The notes below the pieces were generated by a model. The model was not told the DNA's origin. It saw only the letters and a list, made by a program, of their open reading frames with translations, and searched no databases. The position numbers and the translations under genes were made by a program. From positions 65,507 through 129,506 of IMG/VR virus record IMGVR_UViG_3300027741_000002: a DNA stretch of 64,000 nt; one strand, given 5' to 3'. This document shows positions 1,553-63,639 of the stretch, piece after piece (the first letter of the stretch is position 1; each line of letters begins with the position of its first letter). The stretch is from a virus.

Positions 1553-3607
1553 CTATCCCTTACGCTTCTTTGGGAGTAAATCCGCGTCCTTAGAATCATA
1601 GAGTTTTGTCGCTAGGGTGTATGCTCGCTCAAACGGGATATCCCCGTCTCTTACACCTCGTAGCCACGCACCGCGTAGCGCAGGGATTGCCTCATAACCT
1701 AGAGATGAGTACTCGGCCATCGCATGGATAGCGTGCTCTGGTGAGCCGTATTCATCAGCAGTCTTAAGCGCAATAGATAAAAGTTCGTGCTGCATTATTG
1801 AAGCCTCAGCGCGAGAAGACTTAGGGTGAGCCTTAGGCAATAGATCATTGTCCTGCTTATAGTTTGGATTTGCAGGAGAGCCAGACTTGAGAAGTTTGAG
1901 GAACGCATTAACGCGAGCCATTGCCCAACCATCACGAGTCATACCTGGTCGGTGGCTAGACGAGAACGCGCCTGAACCTCTACGGTAAACTGCCTTTAGC
2001 ATTGGAAGGGTTGCCTTACGCCCAGGCTTCGCACCCTTGTTATGAGTTTCTACTTTAGCGCGAAGGCTTGCTTCAGTTCTTGCAGAGAAAACGATCTTCT
2101 TAGATCCTGCGGCGCTTCCTGGCTTATTTTTCTTTGAGCCGTGAATACGATCTTTCTTTGGAGCTGGGCGTGAGCCTGCAGATGTGATTGGACCTCCGAC
2201 TGCCCACGCGTTACACGTGCGTGTCGCGGCGCACTTAAAATCTAGTGCTTCGCAGTAGCCAAGATCTGCTTGCTTGATAGCTGCATCAGCATCTACTTGA
2301 CTTGAGTCTCCTTGTTCTAGTCCTTGTGCGATGCAGTCGAGCATCTTAGGTGTTTGAACAAAAAAGACACAGTTACCGCAGCGACTAGTCTTTGCCTCTT
2401 CAGGAGTTGTTTTCCACTTGTCTGCTTTTTCCTGCCAAAATTCTTCGTTAGGCTCGTTTGGATTCAACGGGCCATAGCCCACGTTGTCAATTGCGTTTTG
2501 ACGATTCTTTAAGTTAACTTGAATATCCTGAGTCGCGACAGGGCATGCATCACCTTCACCTGCAGCAACGATAACTTCTCCGTCACCGTTATCTGCTCCG
2601 TCAACGTTAACTACACCGTCAGGGATAACAGCAAAGCGGCACTTGCCGTCGTCTTCAATAGTAGGTGCGATAATCTTGCAAACGCCAGGACCGTCATACA
2701 GGACACAGTTGACGCACTTAACACCGATCTCCTTGTACTCGTTTTCAGCCGCAGGAGTGTACCCTGCCCAGATGCCTGTCTCGTCTTCGTTAAACTTTCC
2801 GTACTTGTCCGCGATCTCTAGTAGAGCTGCTGCAAGATCCTGCTCTTCGGCAACGATAACTCCTGCTGCTTGAAGAGCTTCAACCCGCTGCTCTTGAAAA
2901 GAGAAATACATATCCTGCGAGGTATACTGTCCGTACTCGTCTGCAGACAGACATTGATTACACACACAACCGGAGTCACATAGACATGTTCCTCCGTCAC
3001 ATCCTGGACATACACAGCCAGCTGGTCCACAAAGTGGGCAGCCGTCTGCGTCGTCCATAAGCTGCTCAACAACAGGAGTGTCTCCTGCGTCTAAAAGTTC
3101 AGCAGCTTCAGATTTTCCCGGCATACCGGAATCTGTAGGTGTTAAATATGCGCCAATCTGCCAACGCCACTTCTTGTGCATGTCATCACGGTCTGCGAGG
3201 AAGTTGATAACTCCCTGCTCGTTGTATTTAGCAGCAAGATCAAGGGCTTGTCCGATAACTGCAATCATTACATCGTTAGCTGCGTAGAGATCTGCTAGCA
3301 TGGAGAATGGGTCGTCTGTAACGTCCATATCCTGTGTCTGGTTAAGATCAATAAAGTCTTGAAGCTTGTAAGGAGCATCATGACCCATCTTTAGCATAAG
3401 CTCTGCCGTAGGATCGATAGACTCGTAGAGATCCTCGTAGATCTCTTGGAAAAACTCGTGAAACTCTGCAAAGTCGCGTCCCTTTACGTTCCAGTGATGG
3501 CCGTGCGTCTTAAAGTACATAGTTACTACGCTGCCTAGAACTACAGCAATCGAGCTGCTAAGCTCCGATCTGTCGGTATTAGTGTCTATGTTTTGATTTT
3601 CGTACAT
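1553..3607 (-). CDS. Multidomain protein: Dps/ferritin-like domain + metallothionein-like Cys cluster + two HiPIP-like Cys domains + DUF5824-like C-terminal domain
   Basis: Dps signature YFKTHGHHWNVKGRDFAEFHEFF...IDPTAE. Ten Cys in 30 aa. CVNC..C..C and CGNC..C..C..CNAW modules. C-terminal AVYRRGSGAFSSSHRPGMTRDGWAMARVNAFL. Confidence 0.8.
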   Translation of the reverse strand: MYENQNIDTNTDRSELSSSIAVVLGSVVTMYFKTHGHHWNVKGRDFAEFHEFFQEIYEDLYESIDPTAELMLKMGHDAPYKLQDFIDLNQTQDMDVTDDPFSMLADLYAANDVMIAVIGQALDLAAKYNEQGVINFLADRDDMHKKWRWQIGAYLTPTDSGMPGKSEAAELLDAGDTPVVEQLMDDADGCPLCGPAGCVCPGCDGGTCLCDSGCVCNQCLSADEYGQYTSQDMYFSFQEQRVEALQAAGVIVAEEQDLAAALLEIADKYGKFNEDETGIWAGYTPAAENEYKEIGVKCVNCVLYDGPGVCKIIAPTIEDDGKCRFAVIPDGVVNVDGADNGDGEVIVAAGEGDACPVATQDIQVNLKNRQNAIDNVGYGPLNPNEPNEEFWQEKADKWKTTPEEAKTSRCGNCVFFVQTPKMLDCIAQGLEQGDSSQVDADAAIKQADLGYCEALDFKCAATRTCNAWAVGGPITSAGSRPAPKKDRIHGSKKNKPGSAAGSKKIVFSARTEASLRAKVETHNKGAKPGRKATLPMLKAVYRRGSGAFSSSHRPGMTRDGWAMARVNAFLKLLKSGSPANPNYKQDNDLLPKAHPKSSRAEASIMQHELLSIALKTADEYGSPEHAIHAMAEYSSLGYEAIPALRGAWLRGVRDGDIPFERAYTLATKLYDSKDADLLPKKRKG

Positions 3608-16778: not shown

Positions 16779-16818
16779 GATGTGTCCTTTCGTCGTTGGG
16801 TTAATTATATCAGGATAA

Positions 16819-17016
16819 TCAGGAAGATTCAAGGACAGAGCAATCGAATGATAAGGCGATTCCTCTATTTCTTTCTTCGGCATTGGGCAGGTCGCTGACG
16901 TCAATCTCTTCGTCCATTACCTGTTGCATCAAAGCCTTAGCCTGCTCTTCGTTGTCGGCATCAAACCAAACCTGGTTCATTGCTACCTCATCGAAGCGAA
17001 ATGTAAACTTAGCCAT
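16819..17016 (-). CDS. Hypothetical protein
   Basis: Start reassigned to the ATG behind the RBS motif at 17024 (MAKFTFRF). Confidence 0.65.
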   Translation of the reverse strand: MAKFTFRFDEVAMNQVWFDADNEEQAKALMQQVMDEEIDVSDLPNAEERNRGIALSFDCSVLESS

Positions 17017-17067
17017 TAGTAATCCTTCCGTCGTTGTAAGGTTAATTATATCAGGTTTTCTTCCATA

Positions 17068-17117
17068 AAGTAAAATAAGAGTGGGACCAGCCCATGTCGA
17101 ATGAAAACTGGTCCCAC
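17068..17117 (-). terminator. Intrinsic terminator
   Basis: GTGGGACCAG/CTGGTCCCAC 10-bp stem followed by a T-rich tract on the minus strand. Confidence 0.7.
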
Positions 17118-17352
17118 AACTACTGGACAGGCGTCTCTCCCTCAACTCTTTGGGCCGACCTCAAAAGCTTTAGCCTAACTAAGCACCTTGCTTTACTCTT
17201 GGTAGAGTCTCTACGAATAACACTAAGCAATGCAGAGGTCTTATGACATACAGTTGCTACCCTTTCCGCACCTTACTAGCTTATTGGGAGTACTCCACCA
17301 TGTGGAACCCGTACGCCTTCAGGCTTGGTTAGTCCAATCCTTTTATTTAGTT
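17070..17352 (-). ncRNA. Candidate structured non-coding RNA (about 280 nt)
   Basis: Exact promoter copy at 17361, no GACGRAAGG motif, no credible sense ORF, several nested stems, terminator at 17081-17117. Confidence 0.6.
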
Positions 17353-17371
17353 ATAGTTGAATTATATCAGG

Positions 17372-17551
17372 TTATTCCCAATCTGTTAGGTATACTGCCT
17401 CGAAGTCAGCCAATGGGCGTTTCAACCCAACTGAAGCCATCTGCAGCATCCGGTCAACGTCCGCGCGCTTGCGCGCCCTAAACTTTGAGATACGTTCGCC
17501 CGTATGAACATCACGGATCTCCCAGATGCCGGCAGATGCATTTTTACTCAT
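17372..17551 (-). CDS. Hypothetical protein, 59 aa (not in ORF track)
   Basis: MSKNASAGIWEIRDVHTGERI...LTDWE; ATGA overlap with the upstream stop. Confidence 0.65.
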   Translation of the reverse strand: MSKNASAGIWEIRDVHTGERISKFRARKRADVDRMLQMASVGLKRPLADFEAVYLTDWE

Positions 17552-17919
17552 GAGAAGAACTTAGTCTCTGCTTCGTATGCTCTACGAAGCTTCTCCGCAA
17601 GTTCCTCGAGCTGTAACTGCCAAGGATACGGCAAAGGCAGGTTGTCACCTTCATCGTCCGTTCCACCGGTGAACACGATGTCACCCATAATGATGTCCGT
17701 CATGCCGAAGCTTTTCTCCCACATGTGCGTGCCGATGATATTTGGTTGCATGCCGTTAATAAGCTTGCCCTCTTCGTTGCACCATAGTGTTAGGTTGTCG
17801 TGCAGGTCAGCTGCTTGAACCAAGCCACCGACTGCTCCCTGGAGTTGTTCGAGACTGTCCACCTCAAGATCTAAGATCTCTGTGGTGAAGTCCGTGTTAA
17901 TTCGCAATGCTGTTTTCAT
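17548..17919 (-). CDS. DUF3846-like protein
   Basis: SLEQLQGAVGGLVQ..LWCNEEGKL..PN..IMGDIVFTG. Confidence 0.8.
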   Translation of the reverse strand: MKTALRINTDFTTEILDLEVDSLEQLQGAVGGLVQAADLHDNLTLWCNEEGKLINGMQPNIIGTHMWEKSFGMTDIIMGDIVFTGGTDDEGDNLPLPYPWQLQLEELAEKLRRAYEAETKFFS

Positions 17920-17922
17920 AGT

Positions 17923-18120
17923 TTACTCGATCTCTTCAATAAATTCTTGAACCGCATCTGTCACCGCGTCATTAAGTAAGTCGTGTAACTTGTCGAGTTG
18001 AGCTGCAGTAAAAGATTCAGCGGTGTACTCGTCGGTGTCACGCATGTAGTTCGCGTGGTCAAGAAAATCTTCGACTGTCATTGTGTAGCTGTATAGTACG
18101 TGATCTGCTGGGTAACTCAT
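17923..18120 (-). CDS. Acidic hypothetical protein
   Basis: Own promoter and RBS motif. Confidence 0.65.
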   Translation of the reverse strand: MSYPADHVLYSYTMTVEDFLDHANYMRDTDEYTAESFTAAQLDKLHDLLNDAVTDAVQEFIEEIE

Positions 18121-18480: not shown

Positions 18481-19001
18481 TTGAATCCTTCCGTCGTTGT
18501 TATAGTACTATTATAACATGTATCTATTATAAAGTACAACACCTTCCGGAATTACTTTTTGTTGTTTTCAAACTCCCAGTAGCTTTTGGCTAGTTCGTAG
18601 AACATCTGGGCAAGACCTGGAGTAATCTCATAACCGATCTGCTCGCAGGCATCGCGGCAATAACCGTTCTCAAGGCTATCGTTAATCTCACCAACCGCGT
18701 CAGCAGCTGAGAAGATGTATCCGGTGTCGGACATCGTAAAGAATGTATCCATGCCCTCATGGGCAACGTAAATGTTGTTCATTATCCTACCTGCATAAGC
18801 TCGCCGCAATCGGCACACCAATATGAATCTCCAAGAATAGAGTCATCATCATACTCGTGGGTCCACTCAACGTGAGCGCACTTAACTGTGGTGGTACTCA
18901 TGTCTATCCTTTCGTCGTTTAGATGGGCAACCAGCGGAAGAAAGTCTGGTAGACTCTCGCCTACAGTTTCATATCCGCTGGCTGCGCGTAGTACTATTAT
19001 A

Positions 19002-19919
19002 TCAGGTTTGGTAGAACTTTAGTTCGAAATTGGTAAGAGTTCGGTAGGCGTTTTGTAGGGACGCGTTGACCTTGCCCATGACCGTATCTAGGGTAGAACA
19101 ATCAGATAGGCTTTGAGCCAGTCTGGTGGCCACAAGTACGGTAGCATTCGAGGTACCTAGGGTAACTGTCGTGTTTCCCTGGACGTCGGTTGTGGCGGCC
19201 CTTCCAAGGGCATACAGGTCAAGGTCTGGCCCGGAGTTAGAGATCAACATGATTGGGTAGACCCAACCGGTGACTTCCTTCATGGAGTACGGGGTATCCG
19301 TTGCTCCTACGGCGATTGCCTGAGGGATACATGCCGGATAGTTAACTTTCTTTTGGTCAGAGTTGTTGCCTGAAGAAATAACCGTTGGGATATTCTTTGC
19401 AGCAAGCTGAACGATAAGTGGTTGAAGCTTTGGATCCGACGATACAGGACACGCTGCTTCCTTGTAGACACGACCGATTGATACGGATACCGCGCCGACA
19501 TTGAGTCTGTCAGCGTTTGCCGCAACCCAATCAAGTGCAAGTGTGACAGCTTTAGTTGTATAAGTAGTTGCGTATCCTTTAGCGCTCATGCCGACGATGC
19601 GGATGAACACGATCTTTACATTTGGATTAGCAGCTACCGCAACCGAAGCCATCTGCGTTCCGTGGCTCATGGCCTTGTCGACTACGAGCTTTGGGTCTAA
19701 AGATGCAGCTCCGGGACCGACCATACTTGGTAGCATGTTTGGGCAGTTGCCGAACTCGATGAAGCAAGCTTCCTCAACTACCGCGGCCTTAGCCCAAGGT
19801 AGTTGCGTGTTGATACCGGAGTCGATGATGACAAGAGTTTTGTCTCCTGCCGCATGCGCCGGTGTTATTAGCAATGACAGACCTAAGGCTGCCGCAATCA
19901 GTAGTACTTTTGTTTTCAT
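19002..19919 (-). CDS. Exported subtilisin-like (S8) serine protease
   Basis: Signal peptide ending AHA; triad motifs VIIDSG, SHGTQMASVA, GTSNAT; oxyanion motif SSGN. Confidence 0.88.
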   Translation of the reverse strand: MKTKVLLIAAALGLSLLITPAHAAGDKTLVIIDSGINTQLPWAKAAVVEEACFIEFGNCPNMLPSMVGPGAASLDPKLVVDKAMSHGTQMASVAVAANPNVKIVFIRIVGMSAKGYATTYTTKAVTLALDWVAANADRLNVGAVSVSIGRVYKEAACPVSSDPKLQPLIVQLAAKNIPTVISSGNNSDQKKVNYPACIPQAIAVGATDTPYSMKEVTGWVYPIMLISNSGPDLDLYALGRAATTDVQGNTTVTLGTSNATVLVATRLAQSLSDCSTLDTVMGKVNASLQNAYRTLTNFELKFYQT

Positions 19920-24116: not shown

Positions 24117-24303
24117 TGCGCATCCTTCCGTCATTAAAATTAGTAACGATGAAGGCGCCGTATTGTTTCGGACCCCTGCAGGTTTCGAGTCTTTAGTTTG
24201 GCCAGCGGCCGCCCCTTCATCGTTATGAGTTAATTATATCAGGTACATAATTAAAAGTAAAATAGGAAACCCCTGGCTGTTAGGCCAGGGGCTTCGTTAA
24301 CTC

Positions 24304-36388: not shown

Positions 36389-36461
36389 GCGGACGTAGCG
36401 CAGTTGGTAGCGCGGAACCTTGCCAAGGTTCAGGTCGCCGGTTCAAACCCGGTCGTCCGCT
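36389..36461 (+). tRNA. tRNA-Gly (GCC), CCA not encoded
   Basis: Acceptor stem GCGGACG/CGTCCGC, D-arm GCGC..GCGC, anticodon arm GAACC-TTGCCAA-GGTTC, T-arm GCCGG-TTCAAAC-CCGGT, U73. Confidence 0.96.
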
Positions 36462-36484
36462 CTGGTTCACGATATTATAAAGTC

Positions 36485-37556: not shown

Positions 37557-39215
37557 TTAAATCGCGTATCTAACAATTATGATACCGGAGCCGCCGCTGG
37601 CTTTATAACCGCCACCGCCACCGCCCATATTTGCTGGAGCGTTTGTATTTTGTTCTCCACCACCACCAAGACCTGGCGCTGGAGTGTTATACCAACCTGC
37701 TCCACCACCTGCGTAATAATAATTACCACCCGATAATTGACCTGTTGATGTAGCAGAACCCATTGCGTTAATTAAGGCAGATGTTGCACCAATTCCACCA
37801 GTTCCACCGATTACTGAACCGTTTGCATTTCCACCAACTCCACCAGCACCTCCACCACCACCAGTACAAAATGCAGCAGTACCGCCAGCGTTACCTTGTC
37901 CAAAAGTACCACTTCCAGGATTAGTAGTTCCCCCACCATTATTAGAGTTACCACCTGCACCTGATCCGCCAGTAGGGTTTTGGCTTCTATACCTTGCTCT
38001 ACCACCACCAACACAAAGGGTCAAGGAACCAAATTGAGAATCATTACCGCTTGTTGCATCATCAACATAATTATCAGTAGCAGTAGTACCACCTGCACCT
38101 ACTGTGCAAGTATATGCCTGAGCAGTAAGGGATTGAGAACTAAAAGTTAATAATCCACCAGCACCACCGCCACCTGAATCTTGTGAAGTTCCACCTCCGC
38201 CAGCAACAACTAATATATCTGCACTTAAGGATATGGTTGGAGTAAATGTACCTGACCCAGTAAATGCGTGATACACATATCCATCAGCGTAACTTACAGT
38301 TCCGCCAGTTGCCTTAGGTGCAGCAGTGTAAAAAATACCTGAAGATAAAAATGTGTGAATTGTATTTCCACCTGATGTGGTTACAGTTCCACCAATCGCT
38401 TTTTGTGTAGTGCCTGAGTATCGGGCTATAACAATTCCTGAGCCGCCGTTGCCTCCATTTTTATTGGCTTGATAAGCACCGCCGCCACCGCCACCGCCTG
38501 TATTAGATGAACCATTGTTAGTATTTCCATTTGCTCCACCGCCAGTTCCACCAGTACCAGGGCCAGTTGCAGAGCCGTAACGATAAGATGAACCACCACC
38601 ACCACCACCAGCATAAGTAGTTGATGAGCCTGAAATAGATGTGGCTACACCATTACCACCATTACCTTGTGTTGAATAATTACCACCAACAGCACCAGCG
38701 CCACCGCCACCGCCAGGACTTTGGTCATAACCACTAATTCCAACAGCAGCATCACCACCAGCATAACCTTGATTAATTGTACCAGCAGCGCCCGTAGAAA
38801 CAACAGAATAATCTCCAGTACCACCACCACCACTACCACCTGTACCAGGTGCAGCATTTGCTGAATTAATACCTGATGAACTTCCTTTACCACCACCAAT
38901 AGAAGTTATAGTAGAAAATACAGAATTACCACCTTGAGTAGCATAAGTTGTTGAAGATTGTATTCCACCATTACCACCAGCACCAACAGTTACTGTGTAT
39001 GCAGTATTAAGTGCCATTGATAAAACAGTTTCTAGTGAACCACCACCACCAGTTGCAGTAACAGTAGAGCGTAAACCTCCTGCTCCGCCGCCACCACCAC
39101 CAGCATTTGAAGCAGCAAATCCTGCACCACCACCACCTGCAACAACAAGGTAGTCAACTGCAAGTGTTAAACGACTCAACGCTCCCGCTGAAGCGGCAGT
39201 TCCAAGAATTGGCAT
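37557..39215 (-). CDS. Glycine-rich-domain protein (two repeats), putative virion fibre/adhesin
   Basis: MPILGTAAS; LVVAGGG twice; GGSGI[VI]I[AV]RY twice; HxF motifs. Confidence 0.8.
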   Translation of the reverse strand: MPILGTAASAGALSRLTLAVDYLVVAGGGGAGFAASNAGGGGGGAGGLRSTVTATGGGGSLETVLSMALNTAYTVTVGAGGNGGIQSSTTYATQGGNSVFSTITSIGGGKGSSSGINSANAAPGTGGSGGGGTGDYSVVSTGAAGTINQGYAGGDAAVGISGYDQSPGGGGGAGAVGGNYSTQGNGGNGVATSISGSSTTYAGGGGGGSSYRYGSATGPGTGGTGGGANGNTNNGSSNTGGGGGGGAYQANKNGGNGGSGIVIARYSGTTQKAIGGTVTTSGGNTIHTFLSSGIFYTAAPKATGGTVSYADGYVYHAFTGSGTFTPTISLSADILVVAGGGGTSQDSGGGGAGGLLTFSSQSLTAQAYTCTVGAGGTTATDNYVDDATSGNDSQFGSLTLCVGGGRARYRSQNPTGGSGAGGNSNNGGGTTNPGSGTFGQGNAGGTAAFCTGGGGGAGGVGGNANGSVIGGTGGIGATSALINAMGSATSTGQLSGGNYYYAGGGAGWYNTPAPGLGGGGEQNTNAPANMGGGGGGYKASGGSGIIIVRYAI

Positions 39216-39290
39216 TAGTTTATCCTTCTCTAAATATACATACAATTCTATACCAATTCTATACTAGTACGGACAAAGCGTCTTAAGGCA

Positions 39291-48949: not shown

Positions 48950-50946
<1,997 letters not shown>

Positions 50947-59621: not shown

Positions 59622-61838
<2,217 letters not shown>

Positions 61839-61851
61839 GGGAGGATAGTAA

Positions 61852-63639
<1,788 letters not shown>

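Follow-up and report, generated by a model that had tools for sequence, protein, structure and literature searches.

A lake actinophage gene for a structured, probably stable non-coding RNA that appears to represent an undescribed family

GOLLD and ROOL, two families listed in Rfam with lengths of ~400–800 nt, are like the RNA reported here phage-borne, stand-alone and intricately folded, with many conserved unpaired nucleotides. The present RNA differs from both in its core of 215 nt, in the lack of a model match and in its absence from bacterial genomes (185,579 species, exact pattern). With the pRNA of phage phi29, a protein-binding scaffold essential for packaging, and with other stable phage RNAs it has in common a promoter of its own and a discrete, stable product, which would here be made by the host polymerase. 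However, it matches phi29 pRNA neither in sequence nor in structure, resides in an unrelated genome of ~130 kb with terminal repeats and is dispensable in sister phages. The bacterial and phage Y RNAs (YrlA), which act with Ro60, are likewise stable RNAs with paired ends encoded beside the gene of a partner protein (a candidate in our case), but the genome investigated here is devoid of TROVE/Ro60 and the RNA has no Y-RNA or tRNA-like match. Structured phage RNAs without an assigned function form a small, slowly growing class, any member of which might reveal new RNA biochemistry or a new tactic in the conflict between phage and host. Fremin, Bhatt and Kyrpides (2023; PMC10690425) screened IMG/VR and reported, on covariation evidence, 10,006 unnamed structured-RNA candidates. 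Its data source (IMG/VR contigs) and its evidence are of the same type as ours, and the present RNA could be one of these candidates; the portions of that article considered here make no mention of promoter-bounded RNA or of Actinobacteria. Judged by title and abstract, no description of the RNA was found among the articles listed on phage-encoded structured RNA in freshwater metatranscriptomes, although the candidates in PMC10690425 may include it.

The DNA analyzed here (the window, 64,000 nt) makes up the latter half of a virus record of 129,506 bp in IMG/VR (IMGVR_UViG_3300027741_000002, positions 65,507–129,506), in which direct terminal repeats are present. Its primase/helicase shares 77% identity over 67% of the query with that of the metagenome-assembled Actinomycetia phage DSL-LC01 (named in PMC10611076), the nearest named phage, and 51–53% identity with those of large Microbacterium phages. 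Judged by this relatedness, the source is an uncultured lake actinophage. Between ~9.6 and 25.7 kb of the window every gene lies on the minus strand, arranged as promoter-headed cassettes. An ORF-free unit at 17371–17070, also on the minus strand, as are all its elements given below, consists of a promoter copy, a folded RNA of ~215 nt, a hairpin and a U-tract. We consider it very probable that this unit specifies a real, expressed and new structured ncRNA, and likely that lake actinophages have here a separate gene whose product, a stable and structured non-coding RNA, belongs to a family not described before. The initial annotation of the window had proposed an early phage ncRNA that stands alone and forms a cassette with a promoter of its own, and the lack of a conserved ORF, the covariation, the discrete contigs in RNA libraries and the exchange of the block between phages all support that proposal.

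The promoter of the unit (17389–17360) combines a −35-like CTAACA (17389–17384), a 17-nt spacer and the extended −10 element TGATATAAT, which lies inside the repeat CCTGATATAATT and whose TG-extended form has its last base at 17361. This repeat, at 17371–17360, is an exact copy of the early extended −10 promoter, which is of the host type, as had been claimed for the exactness of the copy, and one of six exact copies in the window; 17 copies are found at up to one mismatch, and the chance expectation is 0.27. Leaders of the GACGRAAGG type follow 12 of the 16 minus-strand copies. The copy at 17371–17360 is one of the other four, with neither such a leader nor a start codon in the 58 nt examined, which bears out the earlier observation that no RBS motif or gene stands behind it. 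The usual leader is absent within 58 nt also at the copies at 19006 and 24243 (window 18925–19006 and 24144–24243), and the regions behind these two could be leaders or further small RNAs.

Transcription of the unit, whose promoter adjoins the stop codon (17372–17374) of the upstream gene, would start near 17354, ~7 nt past the −10 element, and the predicted 5′ leader would extend from there to helix P1 (17354–17338). In one short-leader subtype of the family this leader is missing, and the −10 element sits ~7 nt ahead of P1. The P1-closed core of 215 nt (17337–17123) corresponds to the whole match of the main-subtype covariance model. It is followed by a terminator-like hairpin and U-rich tract (17117–17070): a 10-bp stem (17117–17108 with 17090–17081) with a 17-nt loop, then the tract at 17080–17070 with TCTTATTTT at 17080–17072. 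Hairpins equivalent to this one covary in relatives. A terminator scan listed no site at the unit because the loop exceeds the 8 nt allowed by its rule; of the terminator claimed for this position, the hairpin and U-tract are thus present, but not as a site under that rule. Promoter, terminator and covariance-model matches agree on the minus strand, the orientation favored at the outset.

With its aptamer-like size and conservation and a hairpin plus U-tract behind it, the RNA might also be a cis-acting leader or riboswitch in which the hairpin serves as the regulated terminator of the downstream gene. We rejected this candidate as very unlikely. A full promoter copy (17055–17044, minus strand) and the leader of the next gene stand directly past the hairpin; since the downstream 66-aa gene is served by this copy of its own, the RNA unit is not its leader. 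Furthermore, the downstream gene differs between loci, and the RNA contigs described below stop short of it.

Covariance-model scans of the window and of all five subtypes of the family agree with the initial statement that the RNA could not be assigned to a known family. At gathering cut-offs, Rfam 15 gave nothing at the RNA locus in a scan of the whole window, where only a tRNA reached the cut-off (36389–36461; tRNA-Gly at 36389–36462 according to ARAGORN). Permissive scans of the window region, of 8 loci from four subtypes and of subtype C yielded only matches with E 0.044–9.7, far below the cut-offs; one of the relatives (L012) gave a Tymo_tRNA-like match of 16.3 bits (cut-off 40) inside the RNA interval and on the opposite strand. 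ARAGORN found no tRNA or tmRNA at 17070–17352.

Several known types of RNA were considered and rejected. A type III toxin–antitoxin RNA (ToxI-like) is not indicated, as 16900–17500 contains no tandem repeats and the RNA is neighbored by the gene of a DUF3846 protein and by small uncharacterized genes. Neither a retron msr-msd RNA nor a Y RNA/Ro60 particle fits, because the whole 129.5-kb genome contains no reverse transcriptase (PF00078) and no TROVE gene (PF05731), with positive search controls in both cases. An antisense regulator of phage genes was discarded since the longest non-self matches in the phage genome measured 12–15 nt, compared with 12–19 nt in 20 shuffles.

To assess the distribution of the RNA, we used the 123-aa protein encoded upstream as a query and fetched 52 related loci, in which nhmmer detected weak but syntenic similarity to the cassette. 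Eleven homologous cassettes, taken from promoter to next promoter, were 296–346 nt long. A pattern from the most conserved stretch, the 5′ domain, matched in 23 IMG/VR stretches and in 52 metagenome stretches of freshwater origin according to run or contig source labels. Among 185,579 prokaryote species, represented by one genome each, this exact pattern, which misses diverged copies, matched no contig. A blastn search in distant mode with the cassette gave no match among 50,697 phage records, and DSL-LC01 has neither the motif nor a DUF3846 homolog nor any match to R1, the covariance model that we built from alignment A2 of the main subtype. R1 matched all 52 motif-bearing sources, and in 34 related sources that lack the motif it gave no match at E ≤1. 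In the window, it matched end to end (model 1–218) at 17338–17122 on the minus strand with 34.5 bits and E 7e-8, the only copy in the 129.5-kb genome.

Altogether, the family comprises 90–93 occurrences with 46–48 distinct sequences, depending on the compared length. By distinct sequences, these fall into five subtypes, a main type (31), the type of the window (8, with 91–99% mutual identity) and three smaller types with 2, 5 and 2 members. All versions have in common a 5′ domain with P1, P2, a three-tier P3 and an invariant AUG triloop, whereas the 3′ domain comes in five types. From the sequences surveyed, the family appears to be confined to uncultured lake actinophages of roughly 115–130 kb and not to have been described before. 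In subtype E (L093:1756–2014, minus strand, and L108), the model match covers only ~108 nt (P1, P2, P3 and a short joiner) and further hairpins follow; these ~108 nt may be the smallest core with which the family can do.

For the main subtype, eleven helices were placed by hand on the MAFFT alignment A2, one of which (helix 8) was weak, with 79% pairing, and was excluded from the model. In total, 54 pairs were scored, and 94.6% of 1,486 cells were standard-paired, compared with 26–43% in controls in which the 3′ partners were slid by 1–3 columns. Two-sided changes were found at 13 of the 54 pairs (81 cells), and none of 500 shuffles reached the covariation score. In this architecture, P1 closes the molecule, and P2 encloses the arm formed by P3a, P3b and P3c together with P4, a hairpin that varies. 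The joiner GGAAAG, rich in purines, connects to P5, which stacks on P1, and P6 encloses the hairpins P7 and P8 with conserved loops. Family-wide, P1 and P3 (15 pairs in 49 distinct rows) were 99.4% paired, a count favored by the fitting of the underlying alignment A3 to R1, and 8 of the 15 pairs showed two-sided changes. Covariation of P1 and P3 is also seen in A1 and A2, two alignments made without a model. Many unpaired positions are invariant across 46–48 versions.

In the window, P1 (17337–17332 with 17128–17123) closes the molecule; this is the end helix TTGGAC/GTCCAG of the first reading, and it covaries throughout the family. The universal 5′ domain (17331–17278) contains the tentative 5′ strand of P2 (17324–17321, to pair with 17273–17270), P3a (17317–17315 with 17280–17278), P3b (17310–17308 with 17288–17286) and P3c (17306–17302 with 17298–17294), capped by the invariant AUG triloop (17301–17299). 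P3c is identical to the stem TTCCAC/GTGGAG noticed before and also covaries family-wide. For P2, RNAduplex predicted a duplex at the respective position in all 47 representatives, with sequences differing by subtype. Next to P3b lies a UAC/AAU internal loop, which we take to resemble a UAA/GAN motif. A non-Watson–Crick pair at this place exchanges A/G for C/A within both the main and the window subtype, as expected of a specific non-canonical pair. Two pairings proposed from the single sequence did not hold as conserved elements. AGGCGT/ACGCCT can form in the window but uses the same bases as the family-wide P3a, so the two helices are mutually exclusive. The crossing pairing AGCCTGA/TTAGGCT is complete (7/7) in four window-type sequences, but reaches only 6/7, 4/7, 4/7 and 4/7 in the others. 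The single-sequence folding energy of the window (z = −1.59 for the minus and −1.40 for the plus strand) is within the range of shuffles.

R1 aligns only P1 and the 5′ domain of the window's RNA; the multi-helix 3′ domain (17277–17129) is subtype-specific, non-homologous to that of the main subtype and replaced in the closest overall relative (L094). Here, a helix GACCUC/GAGGUC (17240–17235 with 17162–17157) encloses three inner elements, namely the helix UUGCUU/AAGCAA (17230–17225 with 17193–17188), a GUAGA hairpin (17214–17202) and a GCUU/AAGC hairpin (17184–17167). The first three had been predicted at the outset, and they fared differently among the eight window-type sequences. The GUAGA hairpin is invariant. 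The outer helix is present in the window and intact (6/6) in four sequences but carries a G–A mismatch (5/6) in the other four, and UUGCUU/AAGCAA, also present, shows a compensatory change from U–A to C–G in two sequences but is reduced to 4/6 in three. The GCUU/AAGC hairpin is swapped for a different hairpin with a GUAA loop in two of the eight. These eight close sequences tentatively suggest a three-way junction analogous to P6–P7–P8. RNAalifold models of the 3′ domain from seven window-type sequences were inconsistent with and without constraints; because of this disagreement, and because folding was indistinguishable from shuffles, we give only a partial model for the window subtype.

The most conserved part of the RNA also contains a potential start codon, and the RNA could therefore be a short coding gene, or a mini-ORF that engages ribosomes, either for a peptide of 6–8 aa or as a trap for initiating ribosomes. 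The AUG lies 6 nt past UAAGGG, a run resembling a Shine–Dalgarno sequence; neither the AUG nor the purine run varies in any version, and in 31 of 47 representatives the reading frame spans 8 aa and conforms to M-[GE]-[TK]-L-[LI]-P-[IT]-S. However, the frame shifts between subtypes (MVEYSQ vs MGTLLPIS) and the length of this loop-AUG mini-ORF varies from 6 to 39 aa. The G/E/V changes in codon 2 track the covariation of P3c exactly, AUG and purine run are both within helices, and ~190 further nt are conserved and structured. A protein-coding gene was also rejected on more general grounds: stop codons interrupt each of the three forward frames in the cassette of the window and in the 11 homologous ones (12 of 12), the mini-ORF is kept neither in frame nor in length, and the sole minus-strand ORF inside the interval is a 36-aa ORF starting with TTG. 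A translated or ribosome-engaging mini-ORF is thus highly unlikely to account for the locus.

The RNA gene has a characteristic genomic neighborhood. Directly upstream on the minus strand lies p59 (17551–17372), a 59-aa gene co-inherited with the RNA, preceded by the gene for the 123-aa DUF3846 (PF12957) protein (17919–17548). A homolog of one or both was found within 800 nt upstream on the same strand at 87 of 93 motif loci; at the remaining six, the upstream sequence (≤330 nt) is too short to judge. The 123-aa protein belongs to phrog_3777 in PHROGs, where no function is given, and to DUF3846 in Pfam, on which a literature search found nothing relevant. Its structural model is a confident fold (pLDDT 91.5), for which neither Foldseek (best E 0.15, HEN1) nor VIA-align (best Z 5.1) revealed a clear relative. 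p59 matched nothing in PHROGs or Pfam, and an Atlas search returned only unnamed clusters with scores ≤0.82. Its model (pLDDT 91.4) has a beta-beta-alpha-beta topology with a weak likeness to GIY-YIG domains (E 0.056–1.3, TMq up to 0.67), including the nuclease domains of I-TevI and UvrC, and GIW...RIS occupies the positions of the GIY and YIG strands. What we take to be the catalytic residues of GIY-YIG enzymes (Tyr, Tyr, Glu) are not evident; too short and without these residues, p59 may be a degenerate nucleic-acid-binding remnant.

The RNA gene is accessory: one 100% complete sister genome with terminal repeats contains no R1 match anywhere, and two other sister genomes carry one R1 copy each. 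Phages that lack the RNA still keep p59 and the DUF3846 gene, for which reason the linkage of these genes to the RNA may reflect only a fixed insertion site. In two loci, L017 and L020, protein genes stand after p59, with a gene for a small Cys-rich protein (CxxC...CGHH) in the place of the RNA (L017:3567–3790, and L020). A paralog of this gene is encoded at window 16502–16287 (minus strand), ~600 nt downstream of the RNA.

Comparison with close relatives points to exchange at two scales. L116 and L101 share with the window only 17533–17023, at 96% identity, a block that holds p59, the RNA and the next promoter, and their flanks differ. L094 is the closest relative of the window in its flanks (92–98% protein identity) and aligns at 17919–17279 and 17087–16444, leaving a gap that coincides exactly with the RNA 3′ domain and the first hairpin arm. 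According to these alignments, the p59–RNA block (17533–17023) is exchanged as a unit between phages, and the 3′ domain is a replaceable module in itself. The recombination breakpoints lie at the promoter/leader repeats in L116 and L101, and in L094 inside the RNA gene just past the 5′ domain (window 17088–17278).

Parts of the region 16800–17950 are contained in 24 sequencing runs. Six of them are metatranscriptomes, four of which we examined by Logan contigs; the DNA runs contain the whole stretch. Each of these four lake metatranscriptomes yielded a single contig restricted to the RNA core, at 17123–17321 (run X19, word depth 53.8), 17128–17328 (X21, 83.5), 17130–17322 (X23, 5.5) and 17135–17321 (X8, 23.7), where each Logan contig carries one depth figure and strand, level and true ends cannot be read from it. 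Separate contigs from the flanks had depths of 2.1–5.8. The hairpin and the leader were covered by none of the four core contigs, and 17034–17111 and 17346–17696 had no RNA contig cover, a gap that is not evidence of absence. In the X19 contig, a sequence that we take to be the Illumina adapter abuts 17123, the last base of P1, an observation from a single contig. The four metatranscriptome studies may stem from a single sampling campaign, and libraries of this kind often under-represent hairpins. The discrete core contigs are good evidence for the existence and accumulation of the RNA, which seems to be one of the better-represented phage transcripts in RNA libraries from lakes. Their confinement to the core, with an end at the base of P1, is a hint that a stable RNA is trimmed to the P1-closed core. 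The initial annotation had named three findings that would speak against an RNA gene, the absence of a transcript, of covariation among homologs, or the presence of a conserved small ORF. All three were examined: transcript contigs were detected in these assemblies, covariation was strong both in the main subtype and family-wide in P1 and P3, and the only small ORF of note was not conserved.

The same contig ends, at or near 17123 and ahead of the hairpin, would also be expected of a new ribozyme that processes itself by removing its own 3′ hairpin at the base of P1; alternatively, such a ribozyme could act on host or phage RNA. A compact tertiary fold, as suggested by the invariant unpaired nucleotides and by the loop resembling UAA/GAN, would be in line with catalysis. 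Yet trimming by host exonucleases to a stable helix also accounts for the ends, no Rfam ribozyme family is matched, and a catalytic core would not usually tolerate the free replacement seen in the 3′ domain, which makes up about half of the RNA. We regard a ribozyme as unlikely. The RNA data bear also on the view that the locus is a non-functional remnant, i.e., a decayed cassette or a recombination scar between promoter repeats. The accessory nature of the gene, missing from the complete sister genome and from DSL-LC01, and the modest folding z-score would fit this view, but the helices are kept by compensatory changes, many unpaired positions are invariant over 46–48 versions, and in assemblies of RNA libraries the depth of the RNA exceeds that of its flanks. 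This makes a remnant extremely improbable.

For the separate ncRNA gene that we favor, the following scheme can be envisaged. Early in infection, the host polymerase would make a primary transcript of ~283 nt that is trimmed to the 215-nt core, and this core would bind protein in trans, as a scaffold or a decoy. The early promoter, the invariant loops, the modular 3′ domain, the accessory status and the linkage to p59 lead us to this tentative assignment, which has perhaps a modest chance of being correct. The invariant 5′ domain might serve as the handle of a conserved partner (p59, which is inherited along with the RNA, or a host protein), and the swappable 3′ domain might set the specificity in the phage–host conflict. 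A bolder and rather doubtful extension is that RNA and GIY-YIG-like p59 form a new RNP with the 3′ domain as guide or decoy cartridge against a variable host factor, for instance, an RNA-sensing or RNA-cleaving defence, or else that the RNA represents a new class of ribozyme. Ligand-binding and ribosome-engaging functions are putative as well. Phages of abundant freshwater Actinomycetia carry this RNA, which is unusually tractable. It measures only 215 nt, its ends, promoter and conserved 5′ domain are defined, and nature provides five versions of the 3′ domain, a sister genome devoid of the RNA and a candidate partner gene.

Additionally, we noted several proteins encoded elsewhere in the window. 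Three large collagen-repeat proteins are encoded within 49303–50946 and 59661–63639 on the plus strand, and a glycine-rich-domain protein at 37557–39245. A 684-aa protein (1553–3607) contains a ferritin-like domain at its N-terminus.
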